From contig CAKPSB010000003.1 of assembly GCA_934183155.1 (NCBI GenBank), positions 3,818 through 67,817 of the forward strand: a stretch of DNA of 64,000 nucleotides, given 5' to 3'. The translations under genes and the position numbers were made by a program. This document shows positions 38,516 through 49,801 of this stretch, piece by piece. The DNA is from an uncultured Bacilli bacterium. Lineage in GTDB: Bacteria > Bacillota_I > Bacilli_A > RF39 > UBA660. The notes beneath the pieces are model-generated. The model saw nothing but the letters and a program-made list of their open reading frames with translations, ran no database searches and was not told where the DNA came from. The first letter of the stretch is position 1. Every line of letters begins with the position of its first letter.

Positions 38516-38547
38516 ATTTATATCCTTTCTATTTTAGAGGTGCAAAA

Positions 38548-39519
38548 GTGAAAAAAATTACAAGCATATTAATCATGATTATTTTAATATTTATCGGATT
38601 TGAAATATTAACAAAATCCGAAAGCATATTAAAAGCAGTTGATTTTTCTTTAAATATTTTTAAAAATAACATTTTTCCATCATTATTTCCTTTTTTTGTA
38701 TTATCAAACATTTTAATCAAATGTGGCTTACCAGAATTAATGGGCTGTTTATTCAAAAAAATTATGAATAAATTATTTAAAATTAAAGGTATAACATCTT
38801 TCATATTTTTTATGAGTATTATCTCAGGAAACCCCGCAAACGCAAAATATACAAAAGAACTTTTATTAGAAGGAAAAATTAATAAATATGAAGCCACTAA
38901 AATATTATGCTTCACATCTTTTTCTAATCCACTTTTTATATTAGGAACAGCCTCTATGTTTTTAAATAATAAAGAAGTTGGCATTCTAATTTTAATCTGC
39001 CACTATTTAGGAAATTTATTTATAGGATTAGGCATGCGTAAATATCATCCAAGCAAAATTGAAAATGAAAAAATTAGTTTACTTAAAGCTATTAACGAAA
39101 TGCATCAAAAAAGAATTAGTAACAAAGATAATTTAGGAATTATTATTACTAACTCTTTAATAAGTAGTATTAACACACTACTTTTAATATTAGGTGTTAT
39201 TACAACATGTTTAGTAATAACAACAATTATAGATAATAATTTAAATTTAAATGACGTCCTACAAAGCATTTTAAACGGTTTTGTTGAAATGACACAAGGC
39301 TTAAAATATATAAGCATGCAAAATATACCATTAAAACTAAAATGCGTTTTAACCGTCATGATTTTATCATTTTCTGGTTTTAGTGTGCATCTTCAAATAA
39401 TGAGTATACTAAGTGACACTGAAATCAAATATTTACCATTTTTATGTGCTAGAATATGTCATGCCTTAATCTCTTCATTACTCATGTATATTTCTTTTGA
39501 CTTTTTTATAAATTTATAA
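38548..39519 (+). CDS. ylbJ: YlbJ-like sporulation integral membrane protein (nucleoside-recognition/Gate domain). GTG start.
   Basis: Polytopic membrane protein divergent from ylbL. This matches B. subtilis ylbJ-ylbL neighbourhood synteny. RBS AGAGGTG precedes the GTG. Confidence 0.55.
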   Translation: MKKITSILIMIILIFIGFEILTKSESILKAVDFSLNIFKNNIFPSLFPFFVLSNILIKCGLPELMGCLFKKIMNKLFKIKGITSFIFFMSIISGNPANAKYTKELLLEGKINKYEATKILCFTSFSNPLFILGTASMFLNNKEVGILILICHYLGNLFIGLGMRKYHPSKIENEKISLLKAINEMHQKRISNKDNLGIIITNSLISSINTLLLILGVITTCLVITTIIDNNLNLNDVLQSILNGFVEMTQGLKYISMQNIPLKLKCVLTVMILSFSGFSVHLQIMSILSDTEIKYLPFLCARICHALISSLLMYISFDFFINL

Positions 39520-39995: not shown

Positions 39996-42755
39996 CTAAC
40001 TCCTAATAAATTTCCATTTTTGAGCATTACTCCTATTACAAGTATAACCCCAAACATTTGCGCCACTACTATTTCCAGATGCATCAACACATAAACCATC
40101 AATATTTTTAAACTCATAATAATCATTTTCAACATTACTTATATAGTAATGCCCACCATGATAATAATGAAAATTCCAAGTTACAATGTTAGTTTTAGAA
40201 GTGCTAGAATTACCAGCAACCCACAAATACTGACTACCATCTACTTGTGATTGAAAATTATAAATAATATTACTATTTTCTATTCTATTAGCCATAACTT
40301 TCCACTTTTGAGCACTTGAACTATTACCAGTATACATTTGAACATTAGTTCCGTTTGCAGCAGCTGCTCCATAAACATCAATTTTTAAATTATTATTTAA
40401 AGCTGACGCTATACTATAAGTATTAGTTGTCGTTGTAAATTTCTTACTACTATCATATAAAGTTCCACTTATAACTATAATATTATTATATAAAGTATTT
40501 TGACTATTTGTATTAGCACTTATATTTATAGAACTACCGCTTATACTAGTCTGACCTCCTTCAATAGTTATACCACCACTTCTAATTTTTTCTGAGCTAT
40601 AACCATTTTTTAAAGTAACATTATCATCAATATTAAGTATACCATTAGTATATATAAGTGACCCTGTTGCTTGAACACTATTACCATCCAAAACAATATT
40701 TTTTAAAGTAAGTGTCCCATTTTCAAAATCAACCATACTTTCATTAACAAAACTAGAACTTCTTATTAAAGAATAAGTTCCATTATAACTAGTTAAAGTT
40801 ATTTTTTTATTATCTGTTAAAATAAGCTTTTCAGTTATTCCAATATCACTCATCAAATGAATTGTCGCTCCATTTTTAGCACTATCATACGCTTTTTTAA
40901 TTGAATAGAAAGGATGAGACATAGTACCATCACCATCTAAATCACTTCCAGCAGAAGAAACATAATAATCACTCATAGCAATTTGACTTTCATCCTGTTT
41001 TATATGTCTTCCTTCAGAAACTTCTTTAAAATTAGAAGTACTATCAACTAAACTAAATGAATTACTATTACCAGCCACATATGTGTTATTTTGATAATAT
41101 TTTCTGCCATCAGCATAATAATGCCATACACCTATTTCTTCTAAATTATATTCTTGTCCTAAATCAACCGTAACACATTGATTAACATAATTATCAGAAA
41201 TTCCATCAACATACTTATCTTCATCATCAATTATTCCATCAACAACAGTACTAAACGTTCCAGTACCATGAACCGAACTAGTAGCAAAATCACCAGTCAC
41301 ATTCTTACCTTTAGCAACGTTTACGCCATCACTAATAGCTTGAATTTCAATCCAATGATTATTACCATTCACTGAATTTCCACCAATACAATTTTTTACA
41401 TATCTAACATTTTTTATTTTAGCACTATCACTTGTTGGGTTACTACCTAAATAAGAAATTTTTGCCATACCATCTTGACTATTAACACTACCCTGCATAT
41501 CCGTATTTATAAAATATTTATTTGAAAAATGAATAGTTTGATTTGTATGTACACCACTAATATTTATAGCATTAACCCCAGCATAGCCAGAAATATATGA
41601 AGATCCGCCGCCACCACCAGCATGCCATTTGGCACCAGAGCCTCCATAATATCCACTACCGCCGCCGCCACCAACGTGGCCATCGGAATAAGCTGCGCCA
41701 TTTCCGCCTTTACCAAAACTTCCAGCCGTTCCACCTGTACTATTAGCCTTACCACCTTTAGTTTGATAAGCCTTTAAACCAGCATAAGTATTTGCTACCA
41801 CATTAGCATAAACCTTTCCATTATTACCAATTAAAGTACCAGCTTCACCACCATGAGCTCCATTAGAATTATTAGACACGCCACCACCACCAGCAGCAAC
41901 CATAATTCTACTTTTTAAAGAAGTAGCATCATTCCAAGCACCTCCAGTTAATCTAACATCAGTAGCTCCACCACCACCACTTTTCGAAGAACTCCAACCA
42001 GTTCCACCACCATTAAAAAGATTTTCTCTAGTACCTGAAGCTCCTACATAAACATATAAATTTTGTCCTCTGTCTAAATAAACTTCTCCTTTAGTATAAG
42101 AGCCTAATCCTCCAGAATTGTCACTAGATCCACCTTGTGCACCCCAAAGCTCAATCTTATAATAACCTGGCATCTTCGTATAATATGTCTGAACATCACC
42201 TGTATACGTATACTCTTTAGTCTCTAAACTATTATCATATTTTGTATCAATAGCTATTGTTGCAAAAGTTCCATTTTTAAATTTAGCAAACAAACGGCCT
42301 TTATTTTTAATTATTTGAGCATCGACTTTACTAATAAAATCTCTTAAATCTTGTTTTAAAACAGCATCTTCTGTTGTTTTAACATAATCTTGAATAACAC
42401 TTAAATCTGATGAAGTGTAAATTAAAGTTTCTACCCCTGTTTGACTCATAATATTATCACAAAATCCAGTACTTTTAAGACCAATACTATCATTACAAGA
42501 ACCATTATTATAAACCATTAAATAAGGATTTCCTTTTATATAATTACCAAAAGGTTTATCCTGATTTTTTCTAAAATATTCACCTATTGATCCCAAATCA
42601 TAAACGCCCTCTACACTATTATAAGCATAACTGTTATTATAATTTATAACCAAATTTCTAAATTGAATAAATAAAAACATTAGAATAGTTAAAACAAACG
42701 TTGAAACTACTAATGACTCTGCTAATAAAAAACCCCGATTATTTACTCTTTTCAT
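39996..42755 (-). CDS. Giant (919 aa) prepilin-signal protein. It has a Gly-rich region, a beta-helix domain and a C-terminal ricin-B lectin. It is a putative pilus-displayed adhesin or carbohydrate-binding protein.
   Basis: N-terminus MKRVNNRG|FLLAESLVV… is a prepilin-peptidase site with Glu+5. Residues ~200-400 are GGxG-rich (GGGGSGYYGGSGAKWHAGGGGGSSY). The segment …DLDGDGTMSHPFYSIKKAYDSAKNGATIHLMSD… is a classic right-handed beta-helix cap. The C-terminus has QxW repeats (SAQKWKV…, NAQKWKFI), i.e. a ricin-type beta-trefoil. RBS AAAGGAG. Confidence 0.6.
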   Translation of the reverse strand: MKRVNNRGFLLAESLVVSTFVLTILMFLFIQFRNLVINYNNSYAYNSVEGVYDLGSIGEYFRKNQDKPFGNYIKGNPYLMVYNNGSCNDSIGLKSTGFCDNIMSQTGVETLIYTSSDLSVIQDYVKTTEDAVLKQDLRDFISKVDAQIIKNKGRLFAKFKNGTFATIAIDTKYDNSLETKEYTYTGDVQTYYTKMPGYYKIELWGAQGGSSDNSGGLGSYTKGEVYLDRGQNLYVYVGASGTRENLFNGGGTGWSSSKSGGGGATDVRLTGGAWNDATSLKSRIMVAAGGGGVSNNSNGAHGGEAGTLIGNNGKVYANVVANTYAGLKAYQTKGGKANSTGGTAGSFGKGGNGAAYSDGHVGGGGGSGYYGGSGAKWHAGGGGGSSYISGYAGVNAINISGVHTNQTIHFSNKYFINTDMQGSVNSQDGMAKISYLGSNPTSDSAKIKNVRYVKNCIGGNSVNGNNHWIEIQAISDGVNVAKGKNVTGDFATSSVHGTGTFSTVVDGIIDDEDKYVDGISDNYVNQCVTVDLGQEYNLEEIGVWHYYADGRKYYQNNTYVAGNSNSFSLVDSTSNFKEVSEGRHIKQDESQIAMSDYYVSSAGSDLDGDGTMSHPFYSIKKAYDSAKNGATIHLMSDIGITEKLILTDNKKITLTSYNGTYSLIRSSSFVNESMVDFENGTLTLKNIVLDGNSVQATGSLIYTNGILNIDDNVTLKNGYSSEKIRSGGITIEGGQTSISGSSINISANTNSQNTLYNNIIVISGTLYDSSKKFTTTTNTYSIASALNNNLKIDVYGAAAANGTNVQMYTGNSSSAQKWKVMANRIENSNIIYNFQSQVDGSQYLWVAGNSSTSKTNIVTWNFHYYHGGHYYISNVENDYYEFKNIDGLCVDASGNSSGANVWGYTCNRSNAQKWKFIRS

Positions 42756-42852
42756 ATTTTTTCTCCTTTGAAGATTGTTTTTATTCTAGAACTATTATAT
42801 AATATATTTAGGATAAAAGCTAGTCCCAAAAAGAATAAAGGAGCCTGATAAA

Positions 42853-44220: not shown

Positions 44221-44250
44221 AATCAGAAAATAAATTTCTGATCTTATTCA
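44221..44250. terminator. Bidirectional terminator
   Basis: aaaaaaaATCAGAAAtaaaTTTCTGATcttattc. Confidence 0.55.
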
Positions 44251-44708
44251 TATTTAGCAATAGCTTTAGCAACAACGCCTTTTAATTCGCCTTTAGTAAC
44301 TGCTGTAATTGTTCTTGTTTCACCAGCTTTTAAAGTATCACCAATATTACCTCTTAATGTAATAATAGTATTACCATCTTTATCTTTTAAATCAATATTT
44401 ACATCATTAATACTACTATCAGTATTTGCTGTATTTGTTACATCAGCTGTAAAAGTACTATAACCGTCCTTTGTAATTAAAGAAATATTAGTAAATTTTA
44501 AATTCTCATATACTTCCTCTTTTACAACACCCGCTTTAGTATTTGCTACCATTTCTTTTTTAGTATTCAAAACTAATTTTTCTTTTTTAAAGTTATTTGA
44601 TAAAGTAATACCAACAGTTAAAGCAATAATAGCGGCTAAAGCAACAATTAAATAATTTTTGTTTTTTTCTACAAATTCAACTACTTGTTTTTTTGAAATA
44701 TTCTTCAT
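44244..44708 (-). CDS. Hypothetical N-terminally membrane-anchored protein (154 aa)
   Basis: ORF track. One TM helix followed by a Thr/Asn-rich, probably beta-rich, domain. Confidence 0.35.
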   Translation of the reverse strand: MKNISKKQVVEFVEKNKNYLIVALAAIIALTVGITLSNNFKKEKLVLNTKKEMVANTKAGVVKEEVYENLKFTNISLITKDGYSTFTADVTNTANTDSSINDVNIDLKDKDGNTIITLRGNIGDTLKAGETRTITAVTKGELKGVVAKAIAKYE

Positions 44709-44762: not shown

Positions 44763-45209
44763 CTATAAATAAATTTTTAATTTATTTATATAAGTTTCAC
44801 CAAATTTTAATAAAGCTTTAGCCATATTTATAACCTTACTATCAACTTTGTTTTCAAACTTTCCAATATTTTTTGACAATTCTAAATTACCCATAGTTAA
44901 TCCCTTTATTAACATATCAGCAACACTAGCATCACTATTATCTTCTAATAATTCTTTATTAATACTTATTTTAGACATAGCTTTAGCCATAATATTCACA
45001 CCTTTAGCATCTAATTTGTGTTTTTTTAATAATTTCTCTGCTTCTAAAGAATATTTTTCATAATTTTTTTTAATTTCAAATAAAATATTTATTATCTTAT
45101 TATCTTTGTTTTTTAAAGCTTTCAATAAGTTTTCACTGCTTTGCACACCCATATTACAAGTCTGATAAATATAATTTAATAACTCTTCATTTTCATTCAT
45201 TTTCATCAC
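44763..45209 (-). CDS. Hypothetical all-alpha protein (148 aa)
   Basis: ORF track. No motif recognised. Confidence 0.35.
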   Translation of the reverse strand: MMKMNENEELLNYIYQTCNMGVQSSENLLKALKNKDNKIINILFEIKKNYEKYSLEAEKLLKKHKLDAKGVNIMAKAMSKISINKELLEDNSDASVADMLIKGLTMGNLELSKNIGKFENKVDSKVINMAKALLKFGETYINKLKIYL

Positions 45210-46742: not shown

Positions 46743-47996
46743 CTATTTTTTAGCATTTAGTTTTTTGTCTCTATAAACTATAATACCAACACCACCAGCA
46801 ATAATTACTAAGCCTACACCTAAAATAATTAATGGAACACTAGCAGCAGTATTTGGAACATCAATATTAGTTCCACAATCCCATGCACCATAAAGTGTTA
46901 AATTATTATTTAAAGCAGTACCGTCAGTCCATTTACCAGTTAAATCATCTTTAGTAAACCAACCTTTAAATTTGCAATTTTCTTGTCTAGTAGTTAATTC
47001 ATTTTCTTGATCATATTTAGTACCTTTGTCAAAACAATTAGTACCAGGAGTTGGATCAGTCAAATTTGGATCAGGTTTAACATTACCAACAATAACATAA
47101 TTAACACAAACTCTTGGCTTATCAACTTTTGCAGTTAACTCAAATGATTTAGATAAATTATCATTGTCAGTATATAAAACTGCTAATCTTTGATAAGAAG
47201 AATCACTAGGTTGATAAATATACGCTTTAGTGTTTACACCATTTGCTGAAACAATAACTTTAATAGTAGTAGTTTGACCTAAAGCATTAGCTGGAATTTT
47301 AACTTGGAATTTTTCTCCAGCATTAAATGTAGTTTTAGATTGACCTTGAGTATTAGTAATTACTGTACCAGTAGGAGCTCCGCTGACTGCAACATTATAA
47401 ACTGTTGTACCAGTTAAAGTTGGAGCAATTTCATTTGAAACAAAGTAATTGCCATCATTAGATAAAATCATATTACTATTACTTACATTAACTGATAAAG
47501 TTGATGCAGCATTAGCTTTAGCTGTTTTAGCTCCAGCTACTAAAGCCTTAATGTTATCTCTAATGCCATAAGGATCAGCAGAATTAGTAGTAAAATCAGC
47601 ACTTAAAGCACCAGATTGACCAGTATCAGCTAAATACCACCATAAAGCACCTTGTGTAATAAATCTATCCAAATCATTATTACCTTTGATTGATTTATAA
47701 GGATAACCATTTTCTAAGATATATCTAATACCATTATCTGCTTCTTTAACTAAATTAACATTGGTTGTTTTTTCAGGCCATTTTTTTTCTACATCCATAC
47801 AATAAGCAACTTTGCCATCGTTAGTTCTAAATTTAGCCCATTTATAATTTTCTCCAATATAAGATACCATTACTCCTTCTCTACTAATAGTAGGATTTTT
47901 AGGAGCAGCACTTACTGTAGATACACTCGTAACAGTTAAAACTGCTACAAGTAAAAATGTACAAATTATACCATAAAGTTTTTTCATAGTTTTCAT
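46743..47996 (-). CDS. Surface adhesin with thioester-domain (TQXA) motifs and a Listeria-Bacteroides (Flg_new) repeat. C-terminal membrane/cell-wall anchor with a non-canonical VPNTA motif.
   Basis: Signal peptide. Cys motif VAYCMDVEKKWP and Gln motif FITQGALWWY. C-terminal …KFKGWFTKDDLTGKWTDGTALNNNLTLYGAWD… (Flg_new-like). The tail is …DVPNTAASVPLIILGVGLVIIAGGVGIIVYRDKKLNAKK (sorting-signal-like). Confidence 0.5.
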   Translation of the reverse strand: MKTMKKLYGIICTFLLVAVLTVTSVSTVSAAPKNPTISREGVMVSYIGENYKWAKFRTNDGKVAYCMDVEKKWPEKTTNVNLVKEADNGIRYILENGYPYKSIKGNNDLDRFITQGALWWYLADTGQSGALSADFTTNSADPYGIRDNIKALVAGAKTAKANAASTLSVNVSNSNMILSNDGNYFVSNEIAPTLTGTTVYNVAVSGAPTGTVITNTQGQSKTTFNAGEKFQVKIPANALGQTTTIKVIVSANGVNTKAYIYQPSDSSYQRLAVLYTDNDNLSKSFELTAKVDKPRVCVNYVIVGNVKPDPNLTDPTPGTNCFDKGTKYDQENELTTRQENCKFKGWFTKDDLTGKWTDGTALNNNLTLYGAWDCGTNIDVPNTAASVPLIILGVGLVIIAGGVGIIVYRDKKLNAKK

Positions 47997-48013: not shown

Positions 48014-49801
48014 TTAACGTACCTTTGGCTTTACATCATTAAGATCTTCAACGCCATAAACTTTTTTATTTAATCTTCTCATAATTTCATCAACTTGTTC
48101 ATCGATAGTCTTATCTTTCTTACTATTTGAAAAAACTACGCTTTCATTATTAATCGTTTTTAGATCATCAACTGACTTATCTTTATCAGTTTTATTCTTT
48201 TTTCTTTTTCTTTCAGCTTCAGATAAAGCTGCTGCACCAATACCAGCTAATATTCCAGGCAAAACATTTGCCTCATCACCAGTTTGTGGTAAATTTCCTT
48301 GAGGAGTAACTGGAACAGATGGTTGTTCTGGCGTATTAGGAATATCTGGAGTATCAGGAGTGTCAGGCTTTGGCTTATCGCCAGGATTCTCTGGTTCCTT
48401 AGGATTGTTATCATCATGAGATGGTTTTAAGCTTGGAGTTGCATCAGGATTTTCTGATGTTTTTTTATTTTCTTCTAATTGATCAGAAACACCTGCAACA
48501 GTAGCAACATAGTTCTCACCTTTATATTTAAAAGTATAACTATTGCCATCAACAGTCTCAACATCATAATTTCCAAAATATGAATGTCTAACATCATCTT
48601 CCATATTGTCAGTTGGTGCATCTGGTAAAGCTACCAAATTGACTATTGCATCAGCTGGTATTTTACCTTCAGCTTGTAAACGTGAAACTAAATCTTGAAA
48701 TTGATTATTTGAAAGGCCAACACCGCCTACTGCTAAATAATAAACTCCCTCATCTTGTAAAATAACATATTGATTATCCCCAACAACAATTTTGTTTTCT
48801 GAAACAACTTGATCATTTTTATTTTCACTATCTTGAACATTAGTGTTGTTCTGTTCCTTATTTTCAGTACTTTGAGTTAATATAACATTGCCATCTTCAT
48901 CTTTAATAATTGCTGTGCCATTCTCATCATAATCAACAGAATAACCAGTATCAGCAATTTTGCCAGATTGACCAGTTTTAATAATATTTTCAAAATCATA
49001 TGCGGTAACATTACCTGATGAAATATCAACACCAGCATCTACTAATTGTTGAGCTAAAACCTCAGGAGCAGGAATATTACCAATTACTATTAATTGTCCA
49101 TCTTTTTCAATAAGATCATAACCATCAAAGTGTTTTACACTAGACTTTTGAATATTTTCATTAGTTACTTGCTCTTGTGTATTTGAAATATTACTTTCTA
49201 AAACATCTTCTACCGTATTTGTTTTAGTGCTTTCAGCTGGAGCAACTTCATCTTGTGTCTCAGCAGGTGTAACTTCAGAAGCGTTTTCAGCTGGAGCAAC
49301 TTCATCTTGAGTCTCAGCAGGTGTAACTTCAGAAGCGTTTTCAGCTGGAGCAACCTCATCTTGAGTCTCAGCAGGTGTAACTTCAGAAACATTTTCAACT
49401 GGAGCAACCTCATCTTGAGTCTCAGCAGGTGTAACTTCAGAAACATTTTCAGCTGGAGCAACCTCATCTTGAGTCTCAGCAGGTGTAACTTCAGAAGCAT
49501 TTTCAGCTGGAGCAACTTCATCTTGCGTCTCAGCAGGTGTAACTTCAGAAACATCTTCAGCCGGAGCAACATAAGTCTGCTCTAAAGTAGTAGGTGTAGT
49601 TGTATCAATAATTGCTGGAGCTTCCTCAGCTAACGCTTTACCAGGACTCATAATAGTAGCTAAAGCTGTCGCAACAGAAAATCCACCAATCAATACTCTA
49701 TTTCTTTTTTCTCTTAAAAAAGCACGTAATTTTTCAAGAGAACCGCTATTTAAACTAGCTGAATTAAATTTTTCTCTAAATAATTTAAATTTCATAAACA
49801 T
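48014..49801 (-). CDS. Repeat-containing surface protein with an LPQTG sortase motif
   Basis: Signal peptide. It has 7-8 copies of a 16-aa acidic repeat (EVTPAETQDEVAPAEN[AV]S). A Pro-rich stalk is followed by …QGNLPQTGDEANVLPGILAGIGAAALSEAERKRKKNK…. An unusual 55-aa hydrophilic extension follows the putative sorting signal. Confidence 0.55.
   Translation of the reverse strand: MFMKFKLFREKFNSASLNSGSLEKLRAFLREKRNRVLIGGFSVATALATIMSPGKALAEEAPAIIDTTTPTTLEQTYVAPAEDVSEVTPAETQDEVAPAENASEVTPAETQDEVAPAENVSEVTPAETQDEVAPVENVSEVTPAETQDEVAPAENASEVTPAETQDEVAPAENASEVTPAETQDEVAPAESTKTNTVEDVLESNISNTQEQVTNENIQKSSVKHFDGYDLIEKDGQLIVIGNIPAPEVLAQQLVDAGVDISSGNVTAYDFENIIKTGQSGKIADTGYSVDYDENGTAIIKDEDGNVILTQSTENKEQNNTNVQDSENKNDQVVSENKIVVGDNQYVILQDEGVYYLAVGGVGLSNNQFQDLVSRLQAEGKIPADAIVNLVALPDAPTDNMEDDVRHSYFGNYDVETVDGNSYTFKYKGENYVATVAGVSDQLEENKKTSENPDATPSLKPSHDDNNPKEPENPGDKPKPDTPDTPDIPNTPEQPSVPVTPQGNLPQTGDEANVLPGILAGIGAAALSEAERKRKKNKTDKDKSVDDLKTINNESVVFSNSKKDKTIDEQVDEIMRRLNKKVYGVEDLNDVKPKVR
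49225..49565. repeat. Tandem 48-bp coding repeat, about 7 copies, inside the LPQTG protein gene
   Basis: Near-identical units …cagctggagcaac(t/c)tcatcttg(a/t)gtctcagcaggtgtaacttcagaa(g/a)c(g/a)ttttc…. They also generate spurious repetitive ORFs in other frames (49210..49585). Confidence 0.8.

Follow-up and report, generated by a model that had tools for sequence, protein, structure and literature searches.

A census by Raynaud et al. (2021, PMC8179133) describes modular pilins as being of wide occurrence and counts over 1,200 of them in 264 architectures. It also discusses several bulky subunits or partners in Gram-negative systems (CofB/TcpB, GspK, ComZ and PilY1) that are proposed to sit at filament tips and to carry effector modules (PMC8179133). 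In Streptococcus sanguinis, the modular pilin PilC bears a lectin, and a small GspI-like pilin, PilA, stabilizes PilC; both proteins are modelled at the filament tip (PMC9934059). Here we describe a locus in a 64,000-nucleotide stretch of DNA from an uncultured Bacilli bacterium (contig CAKPSB010000003.1, positions 3,818 to 67,817; hereafter, the window) that encodes a 919-amino-acid protein, pilin 1, together with a small second pilin, pilin 2, and a divergently transcribed assembly ATPase (Table 1). We think it probable, though by no means assured, that pilin 1 is a modular minor type IV pilin that is displayed as a glycan-binding adhesin. To our knowledge, PilB and PilC of S. sanguinis are the only modular pilins that have been studied experimentally. 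The Sulfolobus bindosome, which is archaeal, combines large sugar-binding proteins carrying class III signals with a dedicated small ATPase/pilin-like set; its cargo consists of solute-binding proteins for uptake, not adhesin modules.

Pilin 1 is encoded by 2.76 kb of uninterrupted frame in DNA of low GC content, approximately 26-32%, which rules out a chance open reading frame (ORF); the GC content of the window is approximately 23-34%, and its GC skew is strongly negative throughout. The exact 919-residue sequence is recorded on 18 contigs and belongs to a cluster of 26 members at ≥90% identity, over which the ORF is intact and 98% conserved. Its NCBI label is 'glycine-rich protein [Bacilli bacterium]' (MDD6323797.1). 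All of the motifs quoted in the original prediction, which was made from the DNA letters and their translations, are present in this ORF exactly as claimed (GGSSDNSGGLGSY, GGGGSGYYGGSGAKWHAGGGGGSSY, SDLDGDGTMSHPFYSIKKAYDSAKNGATIHLMSD, AQKWKV and AQKWKFI). That prediction described three regions behind a prepilin-type N-terminus: a Gly-rich tract, a beta-helix and a ricin-B lectin. We found that these three regions are real, but that the protein is built of five modules, in the order pilin, glycine-rich domain (GRD), CBM32/discoidin-like module, beta-helix and ricin-B; the pilin-sized and CBM32-like modules had been missed. Nor does the prepilin N-terminus lead straight into the cargo, as had been supposed, since a globular module of approximately 165 amino acids sits between the signal peptide and the cargo. 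The six cysteines of the protein form three intradomain pairs (87/99, 456/527 and 889/906), as fits an exported protein, and the first two pairs are nearly invariant, each within its own module family. When the whole protein was searched against PDB sequences with phmmer, it returned ricin-type matches only; for the GRD, the CBM32-like module and the beta-helix, profiles were required.

The N-terminus of pilin 1, MKRVNNRG/FLLAESLVVSTFVLTILMFLFI, consists of a basic leader that ends in Gly, followed by Phe at +1, Glu at +5 and a hydrophobic stretch of approximately 22 residues. It contains all of the elements of a class III signal peptide, with cleavage predicted at G8/F9. Structural modelling had been suggested as a check on the pilin helix, and such a helix is predicted: the AlphaFold2 model of residues 1-190 (pLDDT, the predicted local distance difference test score, 91.6) contains a 38-residue N-terminal helix (residues 7-44) and a small alpha/beta head composed of four strands plus several helices. 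After the pilin module comes a linker of approximately 10 residues with lower pLDDT. Judged by its sequence, pilin 1 fits the definition of a modular pilin, namely, an N-terminal pilin module, a short linker and non-pilus domains.

When residues 1-182 were compared exhaustively, by HMMER, with 1.84 billion cluster representatives, a family of 468 representatives emerged, 194 of them at E≤1e-10. The matches always begin at the first residues of the relative and span residues 1 to approximately 170 of the protein. Among the best 149 of the 468, the consensus G/F(L/M)L(A/V/T)E(T/S)L is nearly invariant, and Glu at +5, a residue important for subunit-subunit packing in filaments, is kept in 143. 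Seventy-one of these 149 are bare proteins of ≤200 amino acids, as large as a typical pilin. The remaining 78 exceed this length and bear a variety of cargo: DUF285 (12 members), Flg_new (6), DUF6273 (6), GRD (5), LamG (5), LRR (5), ricin and fibrinogen-C. This pattern is the behaviour expected of a carrier pilin that receives grafted binding modules. The stand-alone family members match competence-pilus models only (ComGD in 37 of 66, ComGE in 21, ComGC in 7 and ComGF in 6), matches that are weak and are seen at the level of the family.

By its profile match, the Gly-rich region of pilin 1 is a full-length ALK/LTK-type GRD, and neither a collagen-like nor a low-complexity tract. It matches PF12810 with E=1e-39 and 137.4 bits (cutoff 24.5) across positions 6-243 of the 243 in the profile. 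Its 242 residues are 25% Gly, include a single Pro and contain no GXY (Gly-X-Y) runs. A profile of eleven bacterial GRD copies matched, in the PDB, only ectodomain chains of ALK, LTK and C. elegans SCD-2, the best being 7lir (E=1.4e-5) and 7lrz (9e-4). Bacterial proteins contain one to four copies of the domain, usually followed by a CBM32-like module. The metazoan GRD reportedly binds ALKAL cytokines and drives receptor dimerization, as described in structure papers on ALK and LTK from 2021. The glycine stretches of the ALK/LTK domain build bundles of polyglycine-II/polyproline-II (PPII) helices (PMC13243192). By homology, the GRD of pilin 1 may likewise have a polyglycine-II helix lattice, packed on a TNF-like beta-sandwich. 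Our literature search on the function of bacterial PF12810 yielded nothing, the family being mentioned only in one unrelated fungal paper, and a scan of the contigs in the genome collection found a single distant GRD relative (L004).

We also examined the N-termini of 120 bacterial GRD proteins and found at least three kinds. A class III signal with Glu5 was present in 28 of the 120 when a strict motif was used; a second kind is pilin-like without Glu5 (KKGFVVSAVLYPLLVLFL..., KGFATTAIMYSIL...); and a third has the form G(T/Y)SYA(A/L)F, which we take to be SipW/TasA-like. The existence of several kinds of N-terminus indicates that there is more than one route for exporting or anchoring the same cargo.

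Between the GRD and the beta-helix lies a region that we assign, with moderate confidence and on profile comparisons, to a CBM32-like (F5/8 type C) module. Its own Pfam match is weak (PF22633, E=0.061, 14.4 bits, below the cutoff of 27.8), and PF22633 or PF00754 is on record at the equivalent place in many homologues. When a 15-sequence profile was compared with the PDB, all six matches at E<0.01 were CBM32/discoidin modules, with E values of 1e-3 to 7e-3; these include 4a3z (1.3e-3), 4zxe (2.9e-3), 7d29 and 4lks, and comprise CBM32s of the C. perfringens GH89 and GH31 enzymes, chitosan-binding DD domains and the AlyQ CBM32.

Both the GRD and the CBM32-like module have relatives in phages. The GRD matches three PHROG families of unknown function (1589, 7388 and 5811; E of approximately 1e-35 to 1e-37) as well as a 'glycine rich protein' from a phage of C. 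difficile. The CBM32-like module matches phrog_21973, 'tail protein' (E=2e-14), and is 28-40% identical to segments of tail-fibre or minor-tail proteins of the Bacillus phages CP-51, JL, Shanette and BSTP. The original prediction had itself raised the contrary possibility that the Gly-rich tract is a collagen-like remnant of a phage tail fibre, and these phage matches are what such a degenerate remnant might show. However, binding domains are expected to be common to phage receptor-binding proteins, the domain is full-length, lacks GXY runs and has almost no proline, and the intact, conserved ORF lies in a syntenic chromosomal locus flanked by housekeeping and sporulation genes. We therefore regard a phage or collagen-like remnant as effectively refuted.

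The fourth module of pilin 1 is a right-handed parallel beta-helix of the pectin-lyase fold, as judged by its stacked three-strand rungs and its structural similarity to proteins of this fold. The original prediction had suggested that the module might cleave glycans, and the fold does match lyases; thus, pilin 1 could in principle be a tethered polysaccharide-degrading enzyme, with a catalytic beta-helix and with the CBM32-like and ricin modules serving to bind the substrate. We found no support for cleavage. The helix is approximately half the length of the enzymes aligned to it, Pfam and NCBIfam scans of the protein matched no lyase or hydrolase family, and the fold equally matches the non-enzymatic adhesins PfbA, SRRP and pertactin. 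The chance that pilin 1 is an enzyme thus appears slight. As a separate observation, the cap motif of the beta-helix, lYVSxxGSDxtGDGTkexPfkT.kA (40880-40973, residues ~595-625), resembles the N-terminal appended domain of human cytoplasmic asparaginyl-tRNA synthetase; its PDB matches are 4zya (E=4e-6) and 8tc8 (1.4e-4), both asparaginyl-tRNA synthetase, and 3vst (0.034), the N-terminus of a GH120 xylosidase.

The C-terminal ricin-B type lectin held up as originally described. Residues 774-916 match PF14200 (E=2.6e-13, 50.9 bits, cutoff 25.6) and PF00652 (E=7.2e-8, 33.1 bits, cutoff 29), and the PDB sequence matches of the module include the xylanase CBM13 1knl and HA-33. QKW occurs at 816 and 912, in the first and third ricin repeats; the middle repeat has lost its QxW. 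Peptidoglycan hydrolases account for 25 of the 82 ricin-module relatives (CHAP 13, M23 9, NlpC/P60 2 and GH25 1), which suggests that this ricin subfamily may bind a bacterial wall polymer. The closest relatives are mostly C-terminal appendages of peptidoglycan hydrolases from metagenome-assembled genomes of the Erysipelotrichaceae or Eubacterium type. Because relatives of the ricin and CBM32-like modules occur on peptidoglycan hydrolases and on phage tail fibres, we consider the glycopolymers of bacterial cell surfaces a serious candidate for the predicted glycan ligand, no less plausible than the glycans of a host.

The genes adjacent to pilin 1 provide a second line of evidence. Pilin 2 matches the Pfam family N_methyl (E=2.2e-4) and is labelled by NCBI as a prepilin-type cleavage/methylation protein. 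The product of the divergent gene matches T2SSE in Pfam (E=4e-126) and, in NCBIfam, GspE (1.9e-146) and PilB (4e-141), both below the equivalog cutoffs. It contains a Walker A motif, an Asp box, a His box and the tetracysteine motif CTHC/CEHC. This tetracysteine motif is the mark of assembly ATPases as opposed to PilT-type retraction ATPases.

The original prediction proposed a search for homologues that recur with the same ATPase, and such homologues exist. As judged by tblastn and called genes, the order of the locus (divergent ATPase, pilin 1 and, usually, pilin 2) is kept in five lineages. The ATPase orthologues of the four lineages other than that of the window are 66-76% identical and occupy the same position, in each case divergent from a family pilin. 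Convergent ylbJ and a PDZ-Lon protease flank this mini-locus wherever the contig reaches that far.

The cargo, by contrast, differs between lineages and between the two pilins. In the window, pilin 1 (919 amino acids) carries the GRD, CBM32-like, beta-helix and ricin modules, and pilin 2 (156) is bare. In lineage L005-7, pilin 1 (152) is bare and pilin 2 (563) carries a beta-helix and ricin. In L008, pilin 1 (411) carries LamG and pilin 2 (535) again carries a beta-helix and ricin. In L012, pilin 1 (644) carries a GRD and a CBM32-like module and pilin 2 is absent, while in L013, pilin 1 (866) carries LRR, a GRD and a CBM32-like module and the contig ends before the position of pilin 2. The pilin 2 orthologues that bear the beta-helix and ricin cassette (P0121 and P0122) are 35-40% identical to pilin 2 of the window, and the ricin module of the window is 51-53% identical to the copies borne by pilin 2 in these relatives; for the beta-helix, the value is 37%. 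Another protein, P0003, whose recorded sequence starts without a pilin N-terminus, has the same order of GRD, CBM32-like module, beta-helix and ricin, and its beta-helix is 44% identical to that of pilin 1. We considered whether the beta-helix and ricin cassette moved from pilin 2 to pilin 1, but this direction is unproven, since the beta-helix is closer to that of P0003 and the ricin module to the pilin 2 copies.

Conservation also extends to the intergenic region between pilin 1 and the ATPase. A perfect 12-nt palindrome, TATTATATAATA (42793-42804), is invariant in an alignment of the five lineages; the window contains a single copy, where 0.10 would be expected. Read on either strand, it gives TATAAT, suitably spaced from each of the two start codons. 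An adjoining block, CTAGCTTTTATCCTAAA, is conserved in four lineages, and an AAAGGAG ribosome-binding site for pilin 1 is located at 42763-42769. From its sequence and position, the palindrome may serve either as an operator or as the core of a bidirectional promoter. A consensus scan of promoters and terminators gave counts no higher than those in shuffled sequences, and the proposal therefore rests on conservation across lineages.

Table 1. Coordinates of the pilin 1 gene, its modules and the adjoining elements in the window
Feature	Position	Strand	Details
Modular pilin gene (pilin 1), 919 aa	39996..42755	-	ATG start; mature protein 97.8 kDa
Pilin module, residues 1-172	42240..42755	-	Leader, alpha1 helix, alpha/beta head, Cys87/Cys99
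ALK/LTK-type GRD, residues 195-436	41448..42173	-	PF12810 ALK_LTK_GRD
CBM32/discoidin-like (F5/8 type C) module, residues ~447-592	40980..41417	-	Weak evidence; Cys456/Cys527 conserved
Short right-handed parallel beta-helix, residues ~595-770	40446..40973	-	N-terminal cap motif YVSSAGSDLDGDGTMSHPFYSIKKAYDSA
Ricin-B (R-type) beta-trefoil lectin module, residues 774-919	39999..40436	-	PF14200, PF00652
Small pilin (pilin 2), 156 aa	39514..39984	-	MKNNKG/FTVVE; 11 nt downstream of pilin 1
GspE/PilB-type assembly ATPase, 445 aa	42853..44190	+	Divergent from pilin 1
Divergent intergenic region, 97 bp	42756..42852	.	Between pilin 1 and ATPase

The reading of pilin 1 as a minor pilin is based on its domain architecture, the conservation of the class III motif, a family whose cargo is interchangeable, and a conserved association of its gene with those of the ATPase and pilin 2. 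Several observations weigh against it. The 64 kb contain two prepilin-like ORFs only, and no major pilin was found among them. Neither a T2SSF platform protein nor an A24 peptidase was detected when the neighbours and the main ORFs for membrane proteins, a subset of all ORFs, were scanned with Pfam and NCBIfam, and the flanks of the relatives yielded no platform protein, peptidase or major pilin. Because platform, peptidase and major pilin were not found at the locus, filament assembly requires genes elsewhere in the genome. In addition, three close pilin-GRD relatives (P0010, P0033 and P0006) are orphans amid housekeeping genes with no ATPase nearby. These stand-alone genes, at L001 6127-8730, L010 10001-13528 and L011 10001-12910, encode proteins of 867, 1175 and 969 amino acids with one to three GRD copies and have no pilus gene within 10 kb, so that any machinery for them must act in trans. 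A subunit of 98 kDa must, moreover, traverse the Gram-positive wall. The head of the pilin module matched no solved pilin structure, so that the signal peptide, the N-terminal helix, the behaviour of the family and the gene linkage carry the identification as a pilin. Finally, pilin 1 has no match to PF07963 (N_methyl) or TIGR02532, the only pilin model that matches it being ComGD (E=0.11), and within the family PF07963 was matched in just 3 of 66 members and TIGR02532 in 1 of 66. We attribute these poor scores to the variant motif GF(L/M)LxE(S/T)L, which differs from the GFTLxE on which the curated models were trained.

The failure of the curated prepilin models to detect pilin 1, together with a head fold unlike that of solved pilins, would be expected if pilin 1 were an ordinary secreted or membrane-anchored protein whose Sec signal-anchor resembles a prepilin signal, with the ATPase and the small pilin as unrelated neighbours. 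The many GRD proteins that have other N-termini also indicate that this cargo needs no pilin carrier. However, the G-F-x-L-x-E motif with its conserved Glu5, a module that is always N-terminal and pilin-sized, and family members that match pilin models only are not readily explained in this way. Nor is a linkage to the ATPase that persists in five lineages at identities down to 66%, with a conserved putative promoter block between the genes. An ordinary Sec-anchored protein thus seems improbable.

The sparse content of the mini-locus, just an ATPase and one or two pilins, would fit a different arrangement. Here, pilin 1 would be a surface anchor bearing a class III signal, held either by the membrane itself or by a very short pseudopilus of the two local pilins, with its cargo acting as a cell-surface lectin rather than a tip adhesin; the neighbouring ATPase would energize display, as in the Sulfolobus bindosome or the pseudopilus of the type II secretion system. 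Consistent with this arrangement, both local pilins act as cargo carriers and not as abundant structural subunits, and orphan pilin-GRD genes exist. However, a platform protein is required by all known type IV filament systems, so that this arrangement, too, would need genes elsewhere. In addition, Glu5 is almost invariant, and with an anchor at the level of the membrane the thick wall would enclose or cover much of the cargo. We regard the surface anchor as a tentative alternative and a rather unlikely one.

If pilin 1 is a minor pilin, as we favour, then its precursor would enter the membrane through the class III signal peptide, and a prepilin peptidase encoded elsewhere would cut after Gly8, leaving Phe1 to Glu5 on the hydrophobic alpha1 helix. 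The pilin module of approximately 165 amino acids would pair with pilin 2 in a complex that serves for priming or as the tip, and type IV filament machinery, drawing its power from the adjacent GspE/PilB-type ATPase, would lift this complex from the membrane. The rigid string of GRD, CBM32-like module, beta-helix and ricin-B would then project outward and bind glycans as an adhesin. Because the pilin module carries a cargo of approximately 750 residues, pilin 1 would be confined to filament tips or short pseudopili. Processing, incorporation into a filament and hence display on a pilus, location at the tip, pairing with pilin 2 and glycan binding are predicted here by analogy with PilA and PilC of S. 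sanguinis.

A bolder extension, which is speculative and in our estimation quite doubtful, is that uncultured gut-type Bacilli use the mini-locus to build a type IV filament dedicated to 'adhesin display', whose subunits are only carriers of interchangeable binding cassettes, and that the ALK-type GRD is an unrecognized receptor-binding domain of bacteria and phages. If true, this would bear on the origin of the ligand-binding domain of metazoan ALK and LTK.

The neighbours of the locus are housekeeping and sporulation genes, and the locus is chromosomal and syntenic. The sporulation gene ylbJ (38548-39519; TIGR02871, E=3e-64) is convergent with pilin 2, and the 3' ends of the two genes overlap by a few nucleotides in the window (39514-39519), in L005 (11685-11692) and in L008 (4911-4914). 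The overlap is conserved across lineages, and the window has no terminator-like site between the two genes. A 151-amino-acid ORF on the minus strand (38529-38984) lies wholly inside ylbJ, on the opposite strand, and is probably spurious. Convergent with the ATPase are two minus-strand genes: one at 44244-44708 encodes a membrane-anchored FxLYD-domain protein of 154 amino acids (NF038353, E=4e-6), and one at 44763-45209 encodes a protein of 148 amino acids with no family match. Size-matched genes occupy the same positions in L003 (154 and 145 amino acids) and L008 (145). Farther away, at 4-7 kb from pilin 1, are two adhesin-like genes, also on the minus strand. The first (48014-49801) encodes a 595-amino-acid LPQTG wall-anchored protein that extends approximately 60 residues beyond the charged tail of the anchor and contains 6.3 copies of a 54-nt (18-amino-acid) repeat (49231-49570, 95% identical); the second (46743-47996) encodes a 417-amino-acid protein with a thioester domain (TED) plus Flg_new.

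What, then, does this locus add to what is known? The modular-pilin concept is already established, and pilin 1 adds a further, large example to it without constituting a new type of system; our understanding of type IV filaments is unchanged by it. The original prediction called the combination of domains uncommon and functionally unexplored. The four-module combination is indeed new, although this view was somewhat overstated: the portions of the 2021 census that list architectures include, in Dataset S1, pilin-PF12810 (two proteins), pilin-PF12810 x3 (one), pilin-ricin B (one) and pilin-F5/8C (one), and, in Dataset S2 (the PilC/PilY1 list), a PF12810 architecture (PMC8179133). The combination of GRD, CBM32-like module, beta-helix and ricin was not found in these census passages (PMC8179133). 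Three things of limited scope are new: this four-module, 98-kDa cargo on a pilin; a pilin-carrier family of 468 representatives that is largely missed by motif-based censuses; and a conserved mini-locus of an ATPase plus two pilins in which lineages differ in the cargo that each carrier bears. Modular pilins account for the new functions that simple filaments acquire, and a series of lineages with differing cargo on an ATPase-linked pilin pair is direct comparative evidence for the swapping of cassettes between carriers. The locus also puts a bacterial homologue of the ALK/LTK ligand-binding domain into a context that predicts an extracellular binding role. Residues 185-440, 447-592 and 774-919 are defined recombinant targets for assays of binding to glycans or cell walls.

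Comparison with described systems places the locus among the modular pilins. Like the modular pilins of the census, including S. sanguinis PilB with its vWA module, pilin 1 has an N-terminal pilin module fused to non-pilus domains (PMC8179133). It differs in that the census was keyed on the IPR012902 motif, which pilin 1 and most of its family do not trigger. The GRD resembles that of the ALK/LTK receptors (PDB 7n00, 7nx1 and 7lir) in its full-length match to the same family, PF12810. The beta-helix recalls PfbA of S. pneumoniae (4mr0/3zpp) and the binding region of L. reuteri SRRP (5nxk), with which, however, it shares only 13-16% sequence identity; unlike pilin 1, both are anchored to the wall through LPXTG, and they have longer helices. 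The bulky tip subunits of Gram-negative systems likewise differ from pilin 1 in pilin class and machinery; among them, PilY1 falls outside the pilins, and GspK is without the Glu5 that pilin 1 keeps. A literature search on pili of the Erysipelotrichaceae returned nothing useful.

By analogy, the closest characterized counterpart of pilin 1 and pilin 2 is the PilA/PilC pair of S. sanguinis. The genes of the S. sanguinis pair sit in a full pil locus of 22 kb, together with those for major pilins, PilD and the machinery, whereas here only an ATPase and two pilins are clustered, and we detected no sequence homology between the pilin moieties of PilC and pilin 1. The cargo differs as well: PilC (52.8 kDa) carries Ig-like and ConA-like modules, while pilin 1 (97.8 kDa) carries the GRD, CBM32-like, beta-helix and ricin modules. 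Nevertheless, both systems have a Gram-positive host and a large subunit that combines a class III signal with Glu5, a short pilin moiety and a lectin module, and in both a small, non-modular pilin, in the case of pilin 2 a putative partner, is encoded alongside.

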